A DNA stretch of 11,157 nucleotides from Fibrobacteria bacterium (lineage in GTDB: Bacteria > Fibrobacterota > Fibrobacteria > UBA11236): NCBI GenBank assembly GCA_043732185.1, contig JAYTHY010000078.1, positions 1-11,157 on the forward strand. Direction: 5' to 3'. The notes beneath the pieces were generated by a model. It saw nothing but the letters and a program-made list of their open reading frames with translations. It made no database searches and was not told where the DNA came from. This document shows positions 621 to 6,245 of this stretch, in pieces. The stretch's first letter is position 1. Each line of letters begins with the position of its first letter. The translations under genes and the position numbers were made by a program.

Positions 621-2426
621 CTAAGTCTTGTCCATGGACAGCACAGCCAGGAACGCTTCCTGCGGAATCTCAACATTGCCCACGGCCTTCATGCGCTTCT
701 TGCCTTCCTTCTGCTTGTCGAGCAGTTTGCGCTTGCGGCTGATGTCGCCGCCGTAGCATTTGGCTGTAACGTTTTTGCGCAAGGCTTTGATGGTGGAGCG
801 GGAAATGATGCGACTGCCGACAGCGGCTTGGATGATGACTTCAAACATTTGTTGAGGGATGAGCTCTTTCAGTTTTTCGCATAGGGAATTGCCCCAGTTG
901 TAGGCCTTGTCTTTATGGATGATGACGGAAAAGGCGTCAACGGGATCGCCATTGAGAAGGATGTCGAGCTTGACGAGCGCGCCGGGGCGATAGCCGATCA
1001 GTTCGTAGTCGAAGGACGCGTAGCCTTTGGAGACGGATTTTAATTTGTCGAAGAAGTCGAACATGATTTCGCCCATCGGGAATTCGTATTTGAGGTCTAC
1101 TTTTTCCGGGGTCAGGTATTCCATGGTTTGATAGATGCCGCGTTTTTCGCCGGCCAGTTTCATTACGCTACCCACGTATTCTTTGGGCAGGATGATTTGG
1201 GATTTGACATAGGGTTCGTCGATGCCCTCATACTTGCCGGCATCCGGGAGTTTGCTGGGATTTTCAACTACGAATTCCGAGCCGTCTGTCATTTGTACAT
1301 GGTATTCCACATTGGGTACCGTGGAGATGACGGTCATGTTGAACTCGCGGTCGAGCCGCTCGCGCACCACTTCCATATGGAGTAGGCCCAGAAAGCCAAC
1401 GCGGTATCCGAAGCCCAGGGCGAGGGAGGTTTCCGGCTGCCAGGACAGGGCTGAATCGTTCAGGGCCAATTTTTCCAAGGCCTCGCGCAGGTCCTCGAAG
1501 TCATCGGTGTCCATGGGATAGATGCCCGCGAACACCATGGGCACAATATCCTTGTAGCCTTTGAGGGCTTCCGGGGCCGGGTTGCGGCGGTCGATAATGG
1601 TGTCGCCGATTTTTGTGTCTTTGACATTCTTAATGTTGGCGATGACATAGCCCACTTCACCGGCCGCGAGCGAGTCGGTTGCGTCCCGGACCATGGACAG
1701 GGTTCCGATTTCGTTGATCTCGAATTCTTTGTCATTGGCCATGAGGCGGATGGGCGCTTTGAGTTGGAGAACGCCGTCAAAAACCCGGACAAAGGCGATG
1801 GCACCGCGATAGGCATCGAATTTGGAATCGAATATCAAGGCGCGTGGTGGGGCGTTGCGATTGTCTTTGGGGGGAGGGATTTCTTCGATGACGCGGTCTA
1901 AAAGTTCGCGTACGCCGATGCCCTCTTTCGCGGACACTCTTAAAATACGGTTGGGTTCATACCCGAGCAAATCCCCGACGCCTTCTGCAATGTCGTCCGG
2001 ATGGGCGGAAGGCAAATCGATCTTATTTAAAATGGGCACTAGCGTGAGGTTGGCATCCAAGGCCAAGTACAGATTGCTCAGGGTTTGCGCTTCCATGCCT
2101 TGCGTCGCATCCACCACCAAAATAGCGCCTTCGCAGGCGGCTAGCGAACGGCTGACTTCATAGGTAAAATCCACATGTCCGGGCGTATCGATTAGGTTTA
2201 AAAAGTATTCTTCGCCTTTATAGATATAGAGCATGCGGATGGCATGGGACTTAATGGTGATGCCGCGTTCGCGCTCCAAGTCCATATCGTCCAGAACCTG
2301 GGCCTGCATGGCCTGTTTATTCACCGTTTTGGTGATTTCGAGCATACGGTCGGCCAAGGTCGACTTTCCATGGTCGATGTGGGCAATAATGCAAAAATTC
2401 CGTATCCGGGAGGGGTCGGGGCGCAT
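621..2426 (-). CDS. lepA: Translation elongation factor 4 (LepA) GTPase
   Basis: 601 aa. [20 protein letters not shown] (G1), [11 protein letters not shown] (G2), [10 protein letters not shown] (G3), NKIDLP (G4), GFLGLLHME, and the LepA-specific C-terminus [31 protein letters not shown]. Confidence 0.99.
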
Positions 2427-2535: not shown

Positions 2536-3090
2536 ATGAAAACCATGCGATACGCCTATTATGCTAAGTGGATTCTTGTTGCGACCTTGGGACTTTTGGG
2601 ATTGCCTCAGGCAGCCGGGCCGCTCGGTCGTGAATTCAATCGAGATTTCAGCAAGACTAAACAGGTCTTTGTAGAAATCAAAACCCATGAAGGGACGATG
2701 AAGCTGGAACTTTTCCCTCAGAAAGCCCCCAACACGGTGGCCAACTTTATGCATTTGGTGGATTCGGGCTTCTATAAAGGGCTGGTATTTCACCGGATCA
2801 TCGAAGGCTTCATGGCGCAAGCTGGGGATCCTAATGGCGATGGAACGGGTGGACCAGGGTATACCATCGACGATGAACGCAATGATTTGAAGCATGAGGC
2901 GGGCACGCTGTCTATGGCCAATGCCGGGCCGAATACGGGTGGATCGCAGTTTTTCATTTGTCACATGCCACAAGCCCATCTGGACGGCAGGCATACGGCA
3001 TTTGGAAAGCTCGTCACCGGCTTCGATGTGCTCACCCGCCTAGAACGCGGTGACCCGATATTGGACATGAAAGTAACCGAGATCAAGTAG
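2536..3090 (+). CDS. Cyclophilin-type peptidyl-prolyl cis-trans isomerase with N-terminal signal peptide
   Basis: APNTVANF, FHRIIEGFMAQAGDP-GDGTGGPGY, LSMANAGPNTGGSQFFI and HLDGRHTAFG are cyclophilin motifs. The hydrophobic N-terminus KWILVATLGLLGLPQAA suggests export. The true start may be the ATG at 2545, which has AGGA (2531-2534) 10 nt upstream. Confidence 0.96.
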   Translation: MKTMRYAYYAKWILVATLGLLGLPQAAGPLGREFNRDFSKTKQVFVEIKTHEGTMKLELFPQKAPNTVANFMHLVDSGFYKGLVFHRIIEGFMAQAGDPNGDGTGGPGYTIDDERNDLKHEAGTLSMANAGPNTGGSQFFICHMPQAHLDGRHTAFGKLVTGFDVLTRLERGDPILDMKVTEIK

Positions 3091-3130: not shown

Positions 3131-4270
3131 ATGGCTCCGGTAAAAAAAAACGCGAAACCCAGTAAACCTGCGCCCAAGCTCGTTAAGAAGAACAGTGCGC
3201 CTGCTTCCAAAGCGGCGAAGAAAGATAAAGTGACTGCAAAGCCAAAAGCAAAAGTGAAGCAAATATCCGCTAAGGCAGCGAAAGTAGCCCCGCAAAAAGC
3301 GGCCAAAGCCACTGCCCCAGTAAAAGGATCCTCGAAAGCCAAAGATGCTAAGGAGGTTAAATCTCATGCGAAGAAAGCTCCCGTCAAGCCGGTAGTGCCC
3401 CCCTCCAAGAAAAACGTTGTTCCGGCTAAAAAGCCCATAGCTGCCCCGCATGTTGTTAAAAAAGAAGTACCTGTGGCCAAGGCTCCGGTGCTCAAAAAGA
3501 GTAGTCCAGCCAAAGTTGCCCCGGTTGTCGAAAATGTGAAGGGCGTTGCTGCGGTCAAGGCGGTCAAAGTGGAACCGGTGCCCAAACCAGAAAAGGCCCC
3601 CAAGCCTCCCAAGGTTCCACGCGCCAAATCGACAAAACTACCTGCCCCCAAAGGGCCAATGGAAAAAGCCCAGCGCAGTCTAGCAGCTACGGCAGCTAGA
3701 GCTGCGGCTAAGGACAAGGTGCCGCCATCTAAGGCTATGGCTGCCGTAAAAGCGGCTGCCACCAAGGCTCCCACTATTGCCGACGTCAAACCGGTAGTCA
3801 AGAAAAACCCTAAAGCCTTTTTCCATGAAATTGCCGTTGGCGGAGAACGCATCATCAAGCGTGGGGATAAGACCACGGTTTCACCTGCGCCTGTCGATTT
3901 GCAAAATCGTCGTCGTGGTGGCGGGCCGGAAGAAAGTCCGGAAGAGTTGGTGGAACGCATTGAGCGAGAGCTTGAGCATCAACATATTTTCAAGCGCAAC
4001 ATGCTGCGTCCCCAGCTTTGCACAAAATGTGGTCTCAACTCGGTTTCCGAACGTTTTACCATCGACAAAGAGCTCGGCTATTGCGATGATTGCGCAGAGA
4101 TTCTTCATTTGGGTGAAACTAAGGAAGCGCGTAAAACAGATTTCCACGCCGCCACCTTGAAAAAGGAGGGCGATGGTGCCGTGGGTGGTAAAGGCGATGA
4201 GGAGGATGAGGAGGATGAGGACGACGATGAGGATGCTCCTCCCAAAGGAATTCCTGATATCGACGTATAA
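3131..4270 (+). CDS. Lys/Ala/Pro-rich (histone H1-like) protein with C-terminal C4 zinc finger of DksA/TraR spacing and an acidic tail
   Basis: 379 aa. 30 Lys in the first 100 residues, low complexity to about aa 230. CTKC-x17-CDDC at nt 4019-4093. Tail DEEDEEDEDDDED. It fills the space between flanking genes on the same strand. The CDS is solid; the functional label is inference. Confidence 0.75.
   Translation: MAPVKKNAKPSKPAPKLVKKNSAPASKAAKKDKVTAKPKAKVKQISAKAAKVAPQKAAKATAPVKGSSKAKDAKEVKSHAKKAPVKPVVPPSKKNVVPAKKPIAAPHVVKKEVPVAKAPVLKKSSPAKVAPVVENVKGVAAVKAVKVEPVPKPEKAPKPPKVPRAKSTKLPAPKGPMEKAQRSLAATAARAAAKDKVPPSKAMAAVKAAATKAPTIADVKPVVKKNPKAFFHEIAVGGERIIKRGDKTTVSPAPVDLQNRRRGGGPEESPEELVERIERELEHQHIFKRNMLRPQLCTKCGLNSVSERFTIDKELGYCDDCAEILHLGETKEARKTDFHAATLKKEGDGAVGGKGDEEDEEDEDDDEDAPPKGIPDIDV
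4196..4234 (+). repeat. Imperfect 9-bp tandem repeat (GATGAGGAG)n encoding the acidic tail
   Basis: gatgaggag gatgaggag gatgaggac gacgatgag gat read directly from the sequence. Confidence 0.8.
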
Positions 4271-6245
4271 TTTTTGGTTATGGCGGGCCTTAATATTAGG
4301 CCTCGCTCTTGTCTTCCCCTCCCCCATTTCCGCCGGCTATTTGGATGAGAAGCAGTATCCGATCGTCACCGACACTACTTTCACCGCCGATGCATTCATT
4401 CTGGACCAAGCCAAATTCTGGTGCGCTATTTATTTGGATGTAGGCGAAGAAGAAGGTTTGATCCACGATCCGTTTTACCCGGACATGGTATTCAAGAAAA
4501 TCGCAGCTCCAGGAACCGGCCGAAATGCGCTTAAAGCCGTAGAGGTGCAAGTTGAGGCACAGCGGCAGGAAATCCGAGCCATGCTGGCTAAAGACTCGTC
4601 GCTTTGGACGCCTGAAGAACATGTTTTAAAATCCCGCTTCCCGTACTTTTGGGACAGTACCGCCATTACCTTGTCGCTGGGACGGCTGAGGTTTCAGCGC
4701 GGTCTTAAAGCCAAGTTTCGCGCAGGCTTGGAACGCTCGTATCGCTACCTGCCGCTGATCGAGTCTACGCTTACAGCGGAGGGTGTTCCAGCTCGGCTCA
4801 AGTATCTACCGCATGTGGAATCGTCCTTTTACCCTTATGCTTATTCCAAAGTAGGAGCTGCGGGGATGTGGCAGTTTATGAAATCCTCGGCCAGGCGGTA
4901 TTCCGTGAGTGTCGGATACTTGGTGGATGACAGGCGGGATCCGTTTGTGTCTTCACGCGCGGCCGCACGCATGTTGGCCCAAAATTTCGCTCGCCTGAAA
5001 AGCTGGCCATTGGCCATTGTAGCATACAATCACGGCCCAGGTGGATTGGCTAGTGCTGTGCGTGGAACCGGTACACGGGATCTCGGCACCATTATTAAAA
5101 GTTATTACTCCAACTCCTTCGGTTTCGCCTCCAAAAATTTCTATGCGGAATTCCTGGCCGCCTCCAGCATTGCCTTGCATGCCGATTCCCTCTTTCCGGA
5201 CTTGAAAAAAATGGAGCCATTGCGTTTTCAAAGTTTGGTATTGACCAAGCCCTGTGACGTCAAACAATTGGGAGCCATGACGGGACTTTCGCCCGATGAG
5301 TTGGAGGAATACAATCTTGGCCTAAGGCCGACTACGTTTAGGGGCAACACCCAATTGCCGAAAGATTTTGTGTTGCGTCTTCCGGTTGGCATAGAACCCG
5401 TTGCCTTGGCGAATAAACTCAGTGGTGGTCGAGCAATCAAAGATAAAACTGGGAATGTGGATGCAGATGCCAAGCCAACTGTCATTCAACCTATTAAATC
5501 CGGACGCAAACCTAAGGTCGCGAAAATTTCTGAAAGCGACATTGCCTCCATCCGTCCCGCTGACGAAACACCCGAAATCAAAAAACCTGTTCCTGTACCT
5601 AGCCCAGTTGTTCCTGATGTGGTGCATATCGTCGACACAAATTTGGCGTTACAAGCATCCGATTTGGATAAGCTGTCCCATCCAATGGATAAATTTCATT
5701 CCGACAATTACAATCTGCAATCCACTTACGCGGATGGTTTTCTAACGATTCGCGTAGGCACTGAAGAAACACTGTCCCACTATGCGGAATGGGCAGCCGT
5801 ATCCGAACCACGCTTGCGCCAAGCCAATCACATGCAGACCTCGAAGGATTTACGAATAGGACGTTCGATTCGGATTCCTTTAGGAGTAGGAGGAGCAGGA
5901 GGAGCGGGAAAAGCAGAGGACTTTTTGAAGCGAAGGGAAGACTATTACCGAGCCATTGAGGAAGACTTTTATAGCAACTATTACGTGTCGATTAGCGAAC
6001 CGGTGGTGGTGGAAAAAGGCATGAATCTTTGGACTTGGGCCATGGAAAAAGAAATACCGTTTTGGTTACTGCAAAAGCACAATGCAGGCAAATCCCTCAA
6101 TACAATCCATCCTGGGGATACCTTGAATATGCCCGTCATTGAAACCGGGATTCGAAAATGGGGTTTTACCCGCTATGCAAATACAAAAGAGTATCTAGAG
6201 GGTATCGCCCGCTTCCTGAATACAGGAAAACCCGAAGCCTATTGA
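4215..6245 (+). CDS. MltD-like lytic transglycosylase (SLT domain plus degenerate LysM domains), exported
   Basis: Catalytic motif PHVESSF, then SKVGAAGMWQFM, VDDRRDP, SWPLAIVAYNHG and NFYAEFLAA. LysM-like segments ETLSHYAEW...LRQANHM...LRIGRSIRIP and VEKGMNLW...IHPGDTLNMP. Signal peptide WRALILGLALVFPSPISA. Start uncertain: in-frame ATGs at 4173, 4197, 4206, 4215, 4227 and 4233; 4215 has AGGAGG 9 nt upstream. Confidence 0.9.
   Translation: MRTTMRMLLPKEFLISTYNFWLWRALILGLALVFPSPISAGYLDEKQYPIVTDTTFTADAFILDQAKFWCAIYLDVGEEEGLIHDPFYPDMVFKKIAAPGTGRNALKAVEVQVEAQRQEIRAMLAKDSSLWTPEEHVLKSRFPYFWDSTAITLSLGRLRFQRGLKAKFRAGLERSYRYLPLIESTLTAEGVPARLKYLPHVESSFYPYAYSKVGAAGMWQFMKSSARRYSVSVGYLVDDRRDPFVSSRAAARMLAQNFARLKSWPLAIVAYNHGPGGLASAVRGTGTRDLGTIIKSYYSNSFGFASKNFYAEFLAASSIALHADSLFPDLKKMEPLRFQSLVLTKPCDVKQLGAMTGLSPDELEEYNLGLRPTTFRGNTQLPKDFVLRLPVGIEPVALANKLSGGRAIKDKTGNVDADAKPTVIQPIKSGRKPKVAKISESDIASIRPADETPEIKKPVPVPSPVVPDVVHIVDTNLALQASDLDKLSHPMDKFHSDNYNLQSTYADGFLTIRVGTEETLSHYAEWAAVSEPRLRQANHMQTSKDLRIGRSIRIPLGVGGAGGAGKAEDFLKRREDYYRAIEEDFYSNYYVSISEPVVVEKGMNLWTWAMEKEIPFWLLQKHNAGKSLNTIHPGDTLNMPVIETGIRKWGFTRYANTKEYLEGIARFLNTGKPEAY
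5888..5905 (+). repeat. Perfect 9-bp tandem duplication AGGAGGAGC x2 within a Gly/Ala linker
   Basis: aggaggagc at 5888-5896 and 5897-5905, encoding part of LGVGGAGGAGK directly after a LysM-like segment. Confidence 0.7.

Follow-up and report, generated by a model that had tools for sequence, protein, structure and literature searches.

The question raised by this locus is what kind of protein carries a four-cysteine finger behind an acidic helix in a Fibrobacteria genome. The window, which is the whole stretch of DNA analysed (11,157 nt), was read from its letters alone as encoding a divergent TraR/DksA-like module, a small free-standing protein with a single helix ahead of the finger. The features of the locus are collected in Table 1. 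Residues were numbered from the translation of 3131-4267 and checked against the DNA, and the orthology with FSU_0076 of Fibrobacter succinogenes was established by exact look-up. The module in question is a conserved domain at the C-terminal end of a cytoplasmic protein, one that is specific to the class Fibrobacteria. The free-standing, TraR-shaped arrangement was therefore not borne out, as the module is part of a 379-aa ORF with 265 residues ahead of it.

Table 1 Features of the zinc-finger gene and its neighbours in the window.
Feature	Position (nt)	Strand	Basis or remark
lepA (EF4), divergent	621..2426	-	Pfam GTP_EFTU and LepA_C
Cyclophilin-type PPIase, signal-peptide-like N-terminus	2536..3090	+	Directly upstream; Pfam Pro_isomerase 7e-47
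Whole gene, 379-aa protein (P0001), orthologue of F. succinogenes FSU_0076	3131..4270	+	ORF list and translation
Polycationic Lys/Ala/Pro-rich N-tail, aa 1-227	3131..3811	+	Low complexity, histone-H1-like composition, weakly conserved sequence
Conserved pre-helix motifs (FFxE..., ER..K(R/K)..., basic RRR/RRK patch, Gly/Pro break)	3812..3928	+	Alignments A1, A2 and A4; AlphaFold
Acidic amphipathic helix EESPEELVERIERELEHQHIFKRNML, aa 267-292	3929..4006	+	AlphaFold helix and invariant residues in A4
C4 zinc finger CTKC-x17-CDDC (C297, C300, C318, C321)	4019..4093	+	Translation and DNA; Cys conservation
Post-finger conserved segment AEILHLGETKEARK...	4094..4168	+	Short helix, then conserved disordered LGxTKEAR motif
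Polyanionic C-terminal tail, ending ...IPDIDV	4169..4267	+	Charge counts
SLT-LysM lytic transglycosylase	4173..6245	+	Pfam SLT and LysM; ORF overlaps the 3' end of the zinc-finger gene

The protein is a block polyampholyte, in which a basic N-tail, a zinc-finger domain of about 120 aa and an acidic C-tail follow one another, and this architecture is conserved. The 227-aa N-tail of the window protein has a K+A+P fraction of 0.62, with K at 0.25, and a net charge of +49. The corresponding family-wide medians are 186 aa, 0.58 and +38 (over the 50 of 61 members whose tail reaches 60 aa). No conserved columns were seen in the N-tail region of the alignments, and no signal peptide or hydrophobic segment was seen in the translated 379-aa protein. 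The C-tail has a net charge of -13 here; its family median is -11.5, and the charge is negative in 56 of the 58 members with a tail of at least 8 aa. Genome-wide, such tails were found in six frames, which include this protein, the ribosomal protein bS16, the DksA gene and an H1-like acidic/basic protein.

Three side observations concern the tails. The N-tail is net-negative in two family members. Long spurious ORFs are present on the strand opposite the K/A/P-rich region. The 265 residues ahead of the module, 227 of which form the K/A/P-rich tail, and the acidic C-tail were both overlooked by the sequence-only reading.

The finger itself is exactly as first described. C297-T-K-C300 and C318-D-D-C321 are separated by 17 residues (GLNSVSERFTIDKELGY), and translation and DNA agree on the position of the motif. 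All four Cys are invariant in the 61 sequences of alignment A2, with a spacing between the pairs of 17 residues in 59 and of 14 in the other 2. The acidic segment ESPEELVERIERELEHQH starts at E268, 29 residues ahead of the first Cys and after a GGGP break; across the family the acidic motif, EE(S/T)xEEL, starts 30 residues before the first Cys in 54/61 sequences. In the 22-genome alignment A4, helix residues E41, E45, L46, R49 and L54 are invariant. Non-conservation of the ExxE-type acidic residues among homologues had been named as an outcome that would speak against the proposed module; this objection falls away because these residues are conserved. The Gly at loop position 1 and the E-R-F at loop positions 7-9, which had been taken as signature residues of the finger, are present in the window protein and are not features of the family: the residue after the second Cys is Gly in 27/61, Cys in 21 and Asn in 12, and at the ER-hydrophobic site Arg occurs in just 12/59, an aromatic residue being the sole constant.

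AlphaFold was used to predict the structure of the domain. A helix of 23 residues is predicted ahead of the finger (domain residues 43-65, pLDDT 81-86), with no hairpin, and the finger has a pLDDT of 89-95. Behind the finger, A95, L98, L100, G101, E105 and A106 are invariant in A4, and the predicted helix is limited to domain residues 92-98. The acidic helix before the finger and the short helix after it, both proposed from the letters, are thus conserved in the alignments and recovered in the model. The pre-helix segment is predicted to be mostly disordered (pLDDT 55-72); its one short helix spans domain residues 28-34. Modelling domain residues 1-118 as a pair gave a complex score of 0.00, which speaks neither for nor against a homodimer.

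The Cys pattern lies beyond chance because it is conserved, and not because of its spacing. Of the 29,433 stop-to-stop frames in the whole genome that reach 60 aa, 7 contain CxxC-x17-CxxC, and a spacing of 17 is no more frequent in these frames than other spacings. A single one of the seven frames is a Pfam DksA. This indicates that the spacing alone is not diagnostic.

The family has a restricted distribution. The searches returned 78 homologues at E<=0.001, and there are 73 representatives. The gene is present in 202 of the 296 phylum genomes, the single-protein search and the profile search agreeing. By taxonomic family, it was found in 201 of the 208 genomes of nine families (f1-f9), while none of the 87 genomes in the remaining ones (f10-f21) yielded it, and these genome counts take in one unpublished genome (G254). 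The seven f1-f9 genomes in which it was not found are 69-92% complete. Identity ranges from 36 to 87% across the 202 genomes, and many columns besides the Cys are invariant. The gene is a near-universal, mostly single-copy core gene of the class Fibrobacteria. No published literature was found for the identifiers of the family. The suggestion that it is undescribed and lineage-specific held up well.

Three candidates at the edges of the family were rejected. The lone tblastn match outside Fibrobacterota, a Myxococcales locus (L020; 25% identity, E 5e-4), is spurious, since it falls on an HNH-type gene in GC-rich frames that are out of register. P0041, which couples the domain to a methyltransferase on a contig of 1.6 kb, looks like an assembly chimera rather than a true fusion. 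A 1057-aa open frame in another genome (G217) is antisense read-through of lepA.

The gene neighbourhood is conserved in part. The PPIase lies immediately upstream in 16/17 close loci and 14/24 distant loci, with a gap of 3 nt to the gene at the F. succinogenes-type locus. lepA adjoins the gene in 15/17 close and 17/24 distant loci, in several families. The SLT-LysM neighbour was found in 16/17 close loci and, among the 24 distant loci, only in three (L048-L050), all from the window's own family. Scans for promoters and terminators around the gene gave nothing above shuffled expectation on the + strand, and no Rfam match was found within the window.

The expression and proteome data for F. succinogenes come from three published sources (PMC6204037, PMC4668043, PMC6851124). 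The S85 orthologue, FSU_0076 / D9S4E6, is present in a published proteome supplement, and pSortb places it in the cytoplasm. The FSU_0076 locus corresponds to Fisuc_2820, annotated as 'histone protein', together with Fisuc_2821, as matched via the gene order (lepA 2818, PPIase 2819, lexA 2822). This locus was transcribed in 14/14 chemostat conditions, with mean rld values of 9.41 and 9.36, and a second study gave 575 and 490 RPKM. The transcript is about 6-fold under that of the main HU gene (rld 9.4 vs 12.04) and also under that of DksA (10.47). The locus is included in the list of growth-rate-affected genes with a coefficient of -3.27 (padj 4.9e-5). For bS16, rld rises at higher dilution rates on glucose, from 9.71 to 10.88, and the main HU gene has a positive coefficient (+2.98, Table S3). 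The gene is real and expressed.

The domain was compared with described families and structures. The full protein matched 0 Pfam families at E<=1 and 0 NCBIfam families at E<=10, and no plasmid or phage match to the domain was found. The structure matches listed were about 50 of 57 for PDB and 50 of 201 for BFVD (both at E<=10), 50 for VIA-wide and 10 for pdb_via. The best values were E 0.83 for Foldseek against PDB, E 0.56 for BFVD, Z 3.7 for VIA-wide and Z 2.4 for pdb_via. None of these matches allowed a fold to be assigned. In the ESM Atlas, unnamed clusters scored best, at 0.86, recognition fell short of the customary threshold, and no lead emerged. Among the Foldseek matches listed, the nearest folds were RING, MYND, LIM and ZZ-type fingers, all at E>=0.8 and Z<=2.4. 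As far as these searches reach, the zinc-finger domain lies outside every described family.

Two partial likenesses deserve mention. Treble-clef fingers resemble the domain in that the coiled-coil-MYND structures 5mq4 and 5hda come near the finger and that 7/61 members give a weak Pfam RING match. RING, MYND and LIM domains have two zinc sites each, whereas a single zinc site is predicted here, and the likeness reaches to the fold class only. The long polycationic low-complexity region, similarly, recalls the histone-H1-like K/A/P-rich proteins of bacteria, of which chlamydial Hc1 is an example, and automatic annotation gives the F. succinogenes locus its histone name. At E<=1, however, Pfam links the window protein to none of these families, and histone-H1-like proteins of bacteria are not known to carry a conserved zinc finger together with an acidic tail.

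Taken as a whole, the candidate function that we favor is that of a zinc-finger adaptor, tethered to nucleic acid, that serves the nucleoid or the transcription apparatus, to which we give a probability of roughly 0.4. Through electrostatic contacts, the basic N-tail would hold the protein on nucleic acid, most likely on the chromosomal DNA. The finger domain would probably dock onto a conserved component of transcription or of the nucleoid; since half of the domain consists of conserved but disordered motifs, this surface may fold upon contact with its partner. The acidic C-tail and nucleic acid may compete for the basic tail, which would tune the binding. The occurrence of the same tail type on nucleic-acid proteins of this genome argues for the tether. 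Several points count against a nucleoid adaptor. The transcript level is modest for a bulk nucleoid protein, the sole conserved neighbours are lepA and the probably periplasmic cyclophilin, neither of which is nucleoid-linked, and Lys-rich tails bind RNA as readily as DNA. The borderline match to 2kq9 described below and the two net-negative N-tails are counted on the same side, as are the four HU/IHF-type genes that the genome already has. On account of these four genes, a replacement of HU was rejected.

If the tail were bound to rRNA or mRNA, the protein would be an RNA- or ribosome-associated factor, with its finger domain acting in translation or ribosome assembly and with a link to lepA. 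The divergent lepA is the most widely conserved context of the gene, bS16 in this genome bears the same kind of tail, and faint signals in Pfam and Foldseek lead to Rpr2 (6/61 members, best E 0.022) and to zinc ribbons of the ribosome. There is, however, no significant match to a ribosomal-protein family, adjacency on opposite strands is weak evidence for a shared function, and the lepA neighbour is missing at 3/3 loci examined in one family (f8). Expression in F. succinogenes drops slightly with growth rate while the bS16 transcript rises. The bS16 and HU trends run opposite to the negative coefficient of the locus, which argues against a role in ribosome synthesis. We consider this assignment unlikely.

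In a second alternative, the protein would be a general transcription factor that contacts DNA with its tail and binds, away from the secondary channel, either RNA polymerase or the housekeeping sigma factor. In this lineage it would be the counterpart of factors such as CarD, RbpA or chlamydial GrgA. A single-copy core gene across the whole class is consistent with this, as are the conserved disordered motifs, which are typical of extended docking surfaces, and the constitutive, moderate expression, near that of DksA. A weak PDB profile match to CT398 (4ilo, E 0.011, profile positions 23-96) points in the same direction. CT398 is a sigma-54-binding protein with a coiled coil and a zinc ribbon, and proteins of the CT398/HP0958 type share with this family a long helix followed by a C4 finger. 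The score is, however, at noise level, as a LIM domain in that search differs from it by no more than 0.2 bits. In the AlphaFold model this family lacks the long coiled-coil hairpin of that type, and the 25 Pfam families listed, of 45 matched by the 61 members, do not include that of CT398/HP0958. This rather improbable alternative overlaps with the nucleoid or transcription adaptor, from which it differs solely in the partner that it names.

The reading that first drew attention to the locus is that of a TraR/DksA-type secondary-channel factor. Such a factor could be extremely diverged or convergent, and would have its helix in the channel, its finger on the beta-prime rim and its tail on DNA. 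The likeness in layout is real. Both have the x2-x17-x2 Cys spacing, an acidic helix at a similar distance ahead of the finger, with acidic residues that are invariant in this family, and a short helix behind the finger. In the TraR chain 6n57_M, the DksA profile sets the finger from about residue 34 of 72, at a comparable distance from the chain start. The true DksA gene of the window's taxonomic family has a basic K/A/P/S/T-rich N-extension as well. The clean domain profile gave a borderline PDB match to 2kq9, a structure of the DksA family (E 0.0017, 21.9 bits), in which helix and finger were both aligned.

These likenesses were not sustained by the comparisons made for kinship. Pfam zf-dskA_traR (PF01258, gathering 24.9 bits) gave no match to the whole protein or its C-terminal 146 aa at E<=1. 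In a six-frame scan of the genome with the same profile at E<=1, only a site on contig C94 and one weak site on contig C74 were found, and the window ORF was absent. The site on C94, at 55.7 bits, is a separate canonical DksA, as the suggested check for one revealed, so that the window protein coexists with a canonical DksA in the same genome. For the 61 members (E<=1), zf-dskA_traR is absent among the 25 of 45 Pfam families listed. Against the genome's own DksA family, hhalign gave probabilities of 13.3% and 5.2% over just 34-36 finger columns, with the four Cys in register. Within the genome, the family HMM misses DksA at E<=50, and vice versa. The test set of seven bona fide DksA/TraR proteins was taken from genes in plasmid matches and includes two close relatives of the 2kq9 type. 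On these seven, the family HMM reached at most 5.6 bits, compared with 25-230 bits for the DksA profile, and the 2kq9 match was not reproduced. The 2kq9 score is that of a generic zinc finger, since a LIM domain and CT398 lie within 2.6 bits of it. The true DksA, used as a positive control, passed the Pfam, PDB-profile, HMM, tblastn and Foldseek comparisons.

Sequence motifs and predicted structure likewise set the two groups apart. The family finger consensus is C-T-K-C-x-x-N-P-V-x-P-x-F-x-V-D-K-D-L-G-Y-C-x-E-C, and that of DksA, derived from the genome's DksA family and from PDB DksA/TraR alignments, is C-x-x-C-x-x-x-I-P-x-x-R-L-E-A-V-P-T-A-x-x-C; Cys aside, zero positions are shared. The inner motif N-P-V...F-x-V-D-K-D-L-G-Y has nothing in common with I-P-x-x-R-L-E-A-x-P of DksA. 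This family also lacks DxxDxA and the coiled-coil hairpin, and its helix is internal: because 265 residues precede it, its tip, unlike that of TraR, does not form a free N-terminus. The model did yield the proposed helix; in Foldseek, BFVD, VIA-wide and pdb_via, no DksA or TraR chain was among the matches listed. In Foldseek, the control model of the true DksA had DksA chains as its top 7 and did not list TraR. At the level of the amino acid sequence, kinship with DksA/TraR lies below detection, with no reproducible support, and a channel-binding factor of this type is very unlikely. The related idea of a DNA-tethered RNA polymerase regulator, diverged beyond recognition or convergent, which would place a TraR-like acidic helix and C4 finger in the secondary channel, bear a histone-H1-like tail and work with or against the canonical DksA in all Fibrobacteria, has equally little chance of being correct.

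The least probable reading, a non-functional Cys pattern arisen by chance in a low-complexity ORF, can be dismissed: CxxC-x17-CxxC also occurs in probably non-coding frames and spurious long ORFs do lie opposite the K/A/P-rich region, but the Cys and other columns remain invariant at 36-87% identity over 202 genomes, the finger is confidently modelled and the F. succinogenes protein has been detected, so that conservation and the proteome listing refute it.

Fibrobacteria are major cellulose degraders of the rumen and of sediments, and their basic cell biology has been little studied. The present locus teaches that CxxC-x17-CxxC behind a helix is insufficient to call a protein DksA/TraR. Among the genomes sampled, about 97% of those in the class have the gene, and none of those from the remaining phylum does. 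Its near-universality, its expression, the three-block charge architecture and the undescribed finger domain make it a candidate for a lineage-defining component of the nucleoid or the transcription apparatus. This proposal is directly testable, since F. succinogenes S85 can be cultivated and its orthologue, FSU_0076, is known.

The finger module occupies the C-terminal third of a larger protein, a setting overlooked when the sequence alone was read as a divergent TraR/DksA-like module. The protein combines a basic tail, the zinc-finger domain, and an acidic tail.

Features of the zinc-finger protein and its gene in the window
Feature	Position	Strand	Basis or composition
Zinc-finger protein ORF, 379 aa	3131-4270	+	ORF list, translation
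C4 finger C297-T-K-C300 ... C318-D-D-C321, 17 residues between pairs	nt 4019-4093	+	translation read against DNA
Lys/Ala/Pro-rich low-complexity N-tail	residues 1-227	+	K+A+P 0.62, net charge +49
Acidic C-tail ending IPDIDV	residues 347-379	+	net charge -13

All four finger cysteines were invariant when the domain was aligned with 60 representatives, and 17 residues separate the pairs in 59 of the 61 family sequences (14 in two). In the window protein, a GGGP break is followed by ESPEELVERIERELEHQH, which starts 29 residues ahead of the first Cys, and AEILHLGETKEARK lies C-terminal of the finger. The acidic motif begins 30 residues ahead of the first Cys in 54/61 sequences. Within a clean domain alignment from 22 genomes (C-domain numbering), the helix residues E41, E45, L46, R49, and L54 are invariant, as are D85, A95, L98, L100, G101, E105, and A106. 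Judged from these alignments, the helix-plus-finger pattern is under selection. The sequence-only reading had placed the finger exactly, in position and spacing, and its acidic helix is borne out. The Gly at finger position 1 and the E-R-hydrophobic triplet that it listed are present in the window protein but are not family features: Gly follows the second Cys in 27/61 sequences, and the Arg is found in 12/59. When 29,433 stop-to-stop frames (60 aa or longer) of the genome studied were scanned, 7 had CxxC-x17-CxxC, only one of them a Pfam DksA, and spacing 17 is not commoner there than other spacings. The x17 spacing by itself is no marker.

The tails were compared across the same family. Fifty of the 61 sequences have an N-tail of 60 aa or more, and the medians over these are 186 aa, K+A+P 0.58, and net charge +38; the 11 excluded sequences resemble fragments or products of alternative starts. 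The N-tail is net negative in two family members. The C-tail reaches at least 8 aa in 58 sequences, and 56 of these tails have a negative net charge. The basic-tail, zinc-finger, acidic-tail design is conserved in the family, and no signal peptide or membrane segment was found in the translation. A comparable basic tail is carried by only six frames of the genome, the zinc-finger protein included; the others include bS16, the DksA gene, an H1-like acidic/basic ORF, and a DUF4912 protein. The tail of bS16 (contig C104, 153 aa) is C-terminal and Lys/Ala-rich; that of the DUF4912 protein (contig C92, 399 aa) is N-terminal and Lys/Ala/Pro-rich. Another candidate histone-H1-like protein of this genome is a 200-aa frame (contig C85, + strand, from offset 19491), which matches nothing in Pfam and has an acidic N-half followed by a C-half very rich in Lys/Ala/Pro. 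Opposite the Lys/Ala/Pro-rich coding region, a 198-aa Gly/Ala/Leu/Phe/Thr-rich ORF (window 3364-3960, - strand) was rejected as an artefact of composition; in relatives (loci L033, L035, L044), this effect also gives rise to long false ORFs on the strand facing the zinc-finger gene and lepA.

The gene is restricted to one class and is nearly universal there. A word-indexed search found 78 homologues, and exhaustive phmmer found only 73 among 1.84 billion representatives; the named matches are all Fibrobacteria or Fibrobacterota MAGs, or Fibrobacter. Single-protein and profile searches agree on 202 positives among 296 phylum genomes, a tally that counts the unpublished genome G254. The nine families of class Fibrobacteria (f1-f9) account for 201 positives in 208 genomes, the seven negatives being 69-92% complete, and both searches gave 0/87 in the remaining sampled families (f10-f21). 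Most genomes hold one copy. No domain match was obtained in 72,556 plasmid and 50,697 phage records (tblastn, E<=10). In one family sequence, P0041 (465 aa, encoded on a metagenome contig of 1641 nt), a cyclopropane-fatty-acid-synthase-like methyltransferase runs directly into the zinc-finger domain, and the basic tail is missing; an assembly chimera is the most likely origin, rather than a natural fusion.

Close relatives show, at 17 loci, the gene order lepA (opposite strand), cyclophilin PPIase, zinc-finger gene, SLT-LysM transglycosylase, acyltransferase, and copA. LepA is found in 15/17, PPIase in 16/17, and SLT in 16/17, and the missing cases are contig ends. Among 24 loci of more distant genomes, lepA is a divergent immediate neighbor in 17, absent from that place in five, including all three f8 loci, and precluded from calling by a contig end in two. 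In 14/24 the gene immediately upstream, in the same orientation, is PPIase, with a gap of 3 nt in the F. succinogenes-type locus; because the PPIase N-terminus is signal-peptide-like, the pairing tells little about function. The downstream SLT gene is kept only in the window's own family. In a different frame, its ORF shares window 4173-4270 with the 3' end of the zinc-finger gene, and its signal-peptide-like segment (WLWRALILGLALVFPSPISAG) starts just past the zinc-finger stop codon. Translation of SLT therefore probably begins at an in-frame ATG within the overlap, which suggests translational coupling of the two genes. Promoter and terminator scans around the zinc-finger gene gave no signal above shuffles, and Rfam had no match in the window. 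At the window's start, a 201-aa ORF (12-617, + strand) weakly matches the C-terminal toxin-binding domain of Xre/MbcA/ParS antitoxins (E 1.1e-4, 22.6 bits, under the 24.5-bit cut-off) and recurs in two relatives' loci.

The proposed DksA/TraR kinship was examined at the sequence level. The genome does have a canonical DksA (contig C94, 55.7 bits to Pfam zf-dskA_traR), a point that the sequence-only reading had wanted checked. The same Pfam model misses the zinc-finger ORF at E<=1, as protein and in a six-frame genome scan, and is absent among the matches listed (25 of 45 families) for all 61 members. NCBIfam gave no match to the protein at E<=10. The zinc-finger family HMM retrieved nothing but its own ORF from 41,256 genome frames, and the DksA HMM missed that ORF at E<=50. 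Compared by hhalign with 17 aligned sequences of the genome's DksA family, the zinc-finger family reached a probability of 13.3% (broad alignment) or 5.2% (clean), with pairing confined to 34-36 finger columns, Cys in register. The DksA finger interior reads I-P-x-x-R-L-E-A-x-P, whereas the zinc-finger family consensus has only the Cys in common with it. Searched against the PDB at E<=10, the broad-alignment profile matched neither DksA nor TraR chains; a control DksA profile found 6ptg, 1tjl, 4ijj, 2kq9, YbiI, and TraR 6n57_M. The one supporting result is the clean domain profile, which ranked the DksA-like 2kq9 first (E 0.0017, 21.9 bits, helix and finger aligned). This match is not taken as homology, because a LIM domain and CT398 lie within 2.6 bits (at 19.5 and 19.3 bits) and because the clean-domain HMM gives <=5.6 bits to each of seven bona fide DksA/TraR proteins, two of which are 2kq9-type proteins from Rhizobium. 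The DksA profile gives those seven 25-230 bits.

The AlphaFold2 model of the C-domain (61 sequences, mean pLDDT 71.6) has the acidic helix at domain residues 43-65 (pLDDT 81-86), the finger (89-95), and a short helix at residues 92-98; it shows no coiled-coil hairpin, and its remaining residues form coil of low confidence. A Foldseek search of the PDB gave 57 matches (best E 0.83), led by MYND, RING, ZZ, LIM, and ribosomal fingers, with no DksA or TraR among those listed. In the control, the DksA of this genome, modelled at a lower pLDDT (64.1), had DksA chains as its seven best matches (5vsw_M at 2.7e-5), and TraR was not listed; the control thus bears on the DksA fold and not on a TraR-sized one. 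BFVD, VIA-wide, and pdb_via gave no clear structural match among those listed. By the profile comparisons, the protein is not a DksA/TraR member. The C-domain belongs to no described family.

The C94 DksA gene itself is a 244-aa ORF (locus L001, 1474-2208, - strand; relatives L072-L075) with a 113-aa Lys/Ala/Pro/Ser/Thr-rich in-frame N-extension. The DksA open frame is 164-344 aa in all f1 genomes with a full-length match, and only 127-148 aa in four of the five matching f2 genomes, the fifth having 130 aa. Close relatives are publicly annotated from the internal Met onward, which gives 130 aa. The DksA N-tail may be a real family-specific addition.

The Fibrobacter succinogenes S85 orthologue is FSU_0076 (ADL24672.1, WP_014544936.1, D9S4E6), annotated as 'hypothetical protein'. 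One annotation has a single 349-aa gene (L033:7603-8652); another has two genes between PPIase and lexA. From the gene order in PMC6204037, supplement file 1 (lepA Fisuc_2818, PPIase 2819, lexA 2822), we infer that Fisuc_2820 'histone protein' and Fisuc_2821 'hypothetical protein' together represent this locus. Their expression values are near-identical (mean rld 9.41 and 9.36 over 14 chemostat conditions, CV near 2.5%; PMC6204037), and they are probably a split annotation of one gene. For comparison, PPIase is at 10.63, LepA 8.61, the main HU gene 12.04, DksA 10.47, and bS16 10.07 (PMC6204037); in that supplement the zinc-finger gene is listed as affected by growth rate with a negative coefficient (-3.27, padj 4.9e-5), the HU gene carries a positive one, and the bS16 rld climbs with dilution rate on glucose (Table S2). 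Fisuc_2820 is listed at 575 RPKM on cellulose and 490 on glucose (PMC4668043, file 1). D9S4E6/FSU_0076 appears among the identified and the regulated proteins of PMC6851124, file 3, with a fold change of 1.26 and a cytoplasmic pSortb call. As far as these supplements go, this is a real gene that is expressed in F. succinogenes and whose product is predicted to be cytoplasmic. No paper naming FSU_0076, Fisuc_2820, Fisuc_2821, D9S4E6, or WP_014544936 was found in the full-text literature, and matches listed for Fibrobacter 'histone-like' and Fibrobacteres 'conserved signature proteins' held nothing relevant.

The protein is tentatively read as a DNA-tethered adaptor of the nucleoid or the transcription apparatus, with a probability of about 0.4. 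The basic tail would bind nucleic acid electrostatically, and could be occupied by the acidic tail in competition with that nucleic acid. About half of the conserved C-domain positions (FFxE, the basic patch, LGxTKEAR) fall in predicted disordered segments, as expected of a surface folding on a large partner. The adaptor reading is favored because of these features and the other tailed nucleic-acid proteins. Against it, the F. succinogenes transcript is about 6-fold below HU in the supplementary values, four HU/IHF genes are already present in the genome, and, of the conserved neighbors, only a translation factor has a known role in the cytoplasm. A role linked to RNA or the ribosome is unlikely, and a transcription factor binding RNA polymerase or sigma outside the channel is a little more doubtful. 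The RNA polymerase secondary-channel factor first proposed, for which the clean profile match to 2kq9 counts, is highly improbable. With its new zinc-finger domain, the protein is best placed among the H1-like basic proteins of bacteria. The adaptor mechanism stays a proposal; the protein is a lineage-defining unknown of an ecologically important class, in which F. succinogenes S85 allows testing.
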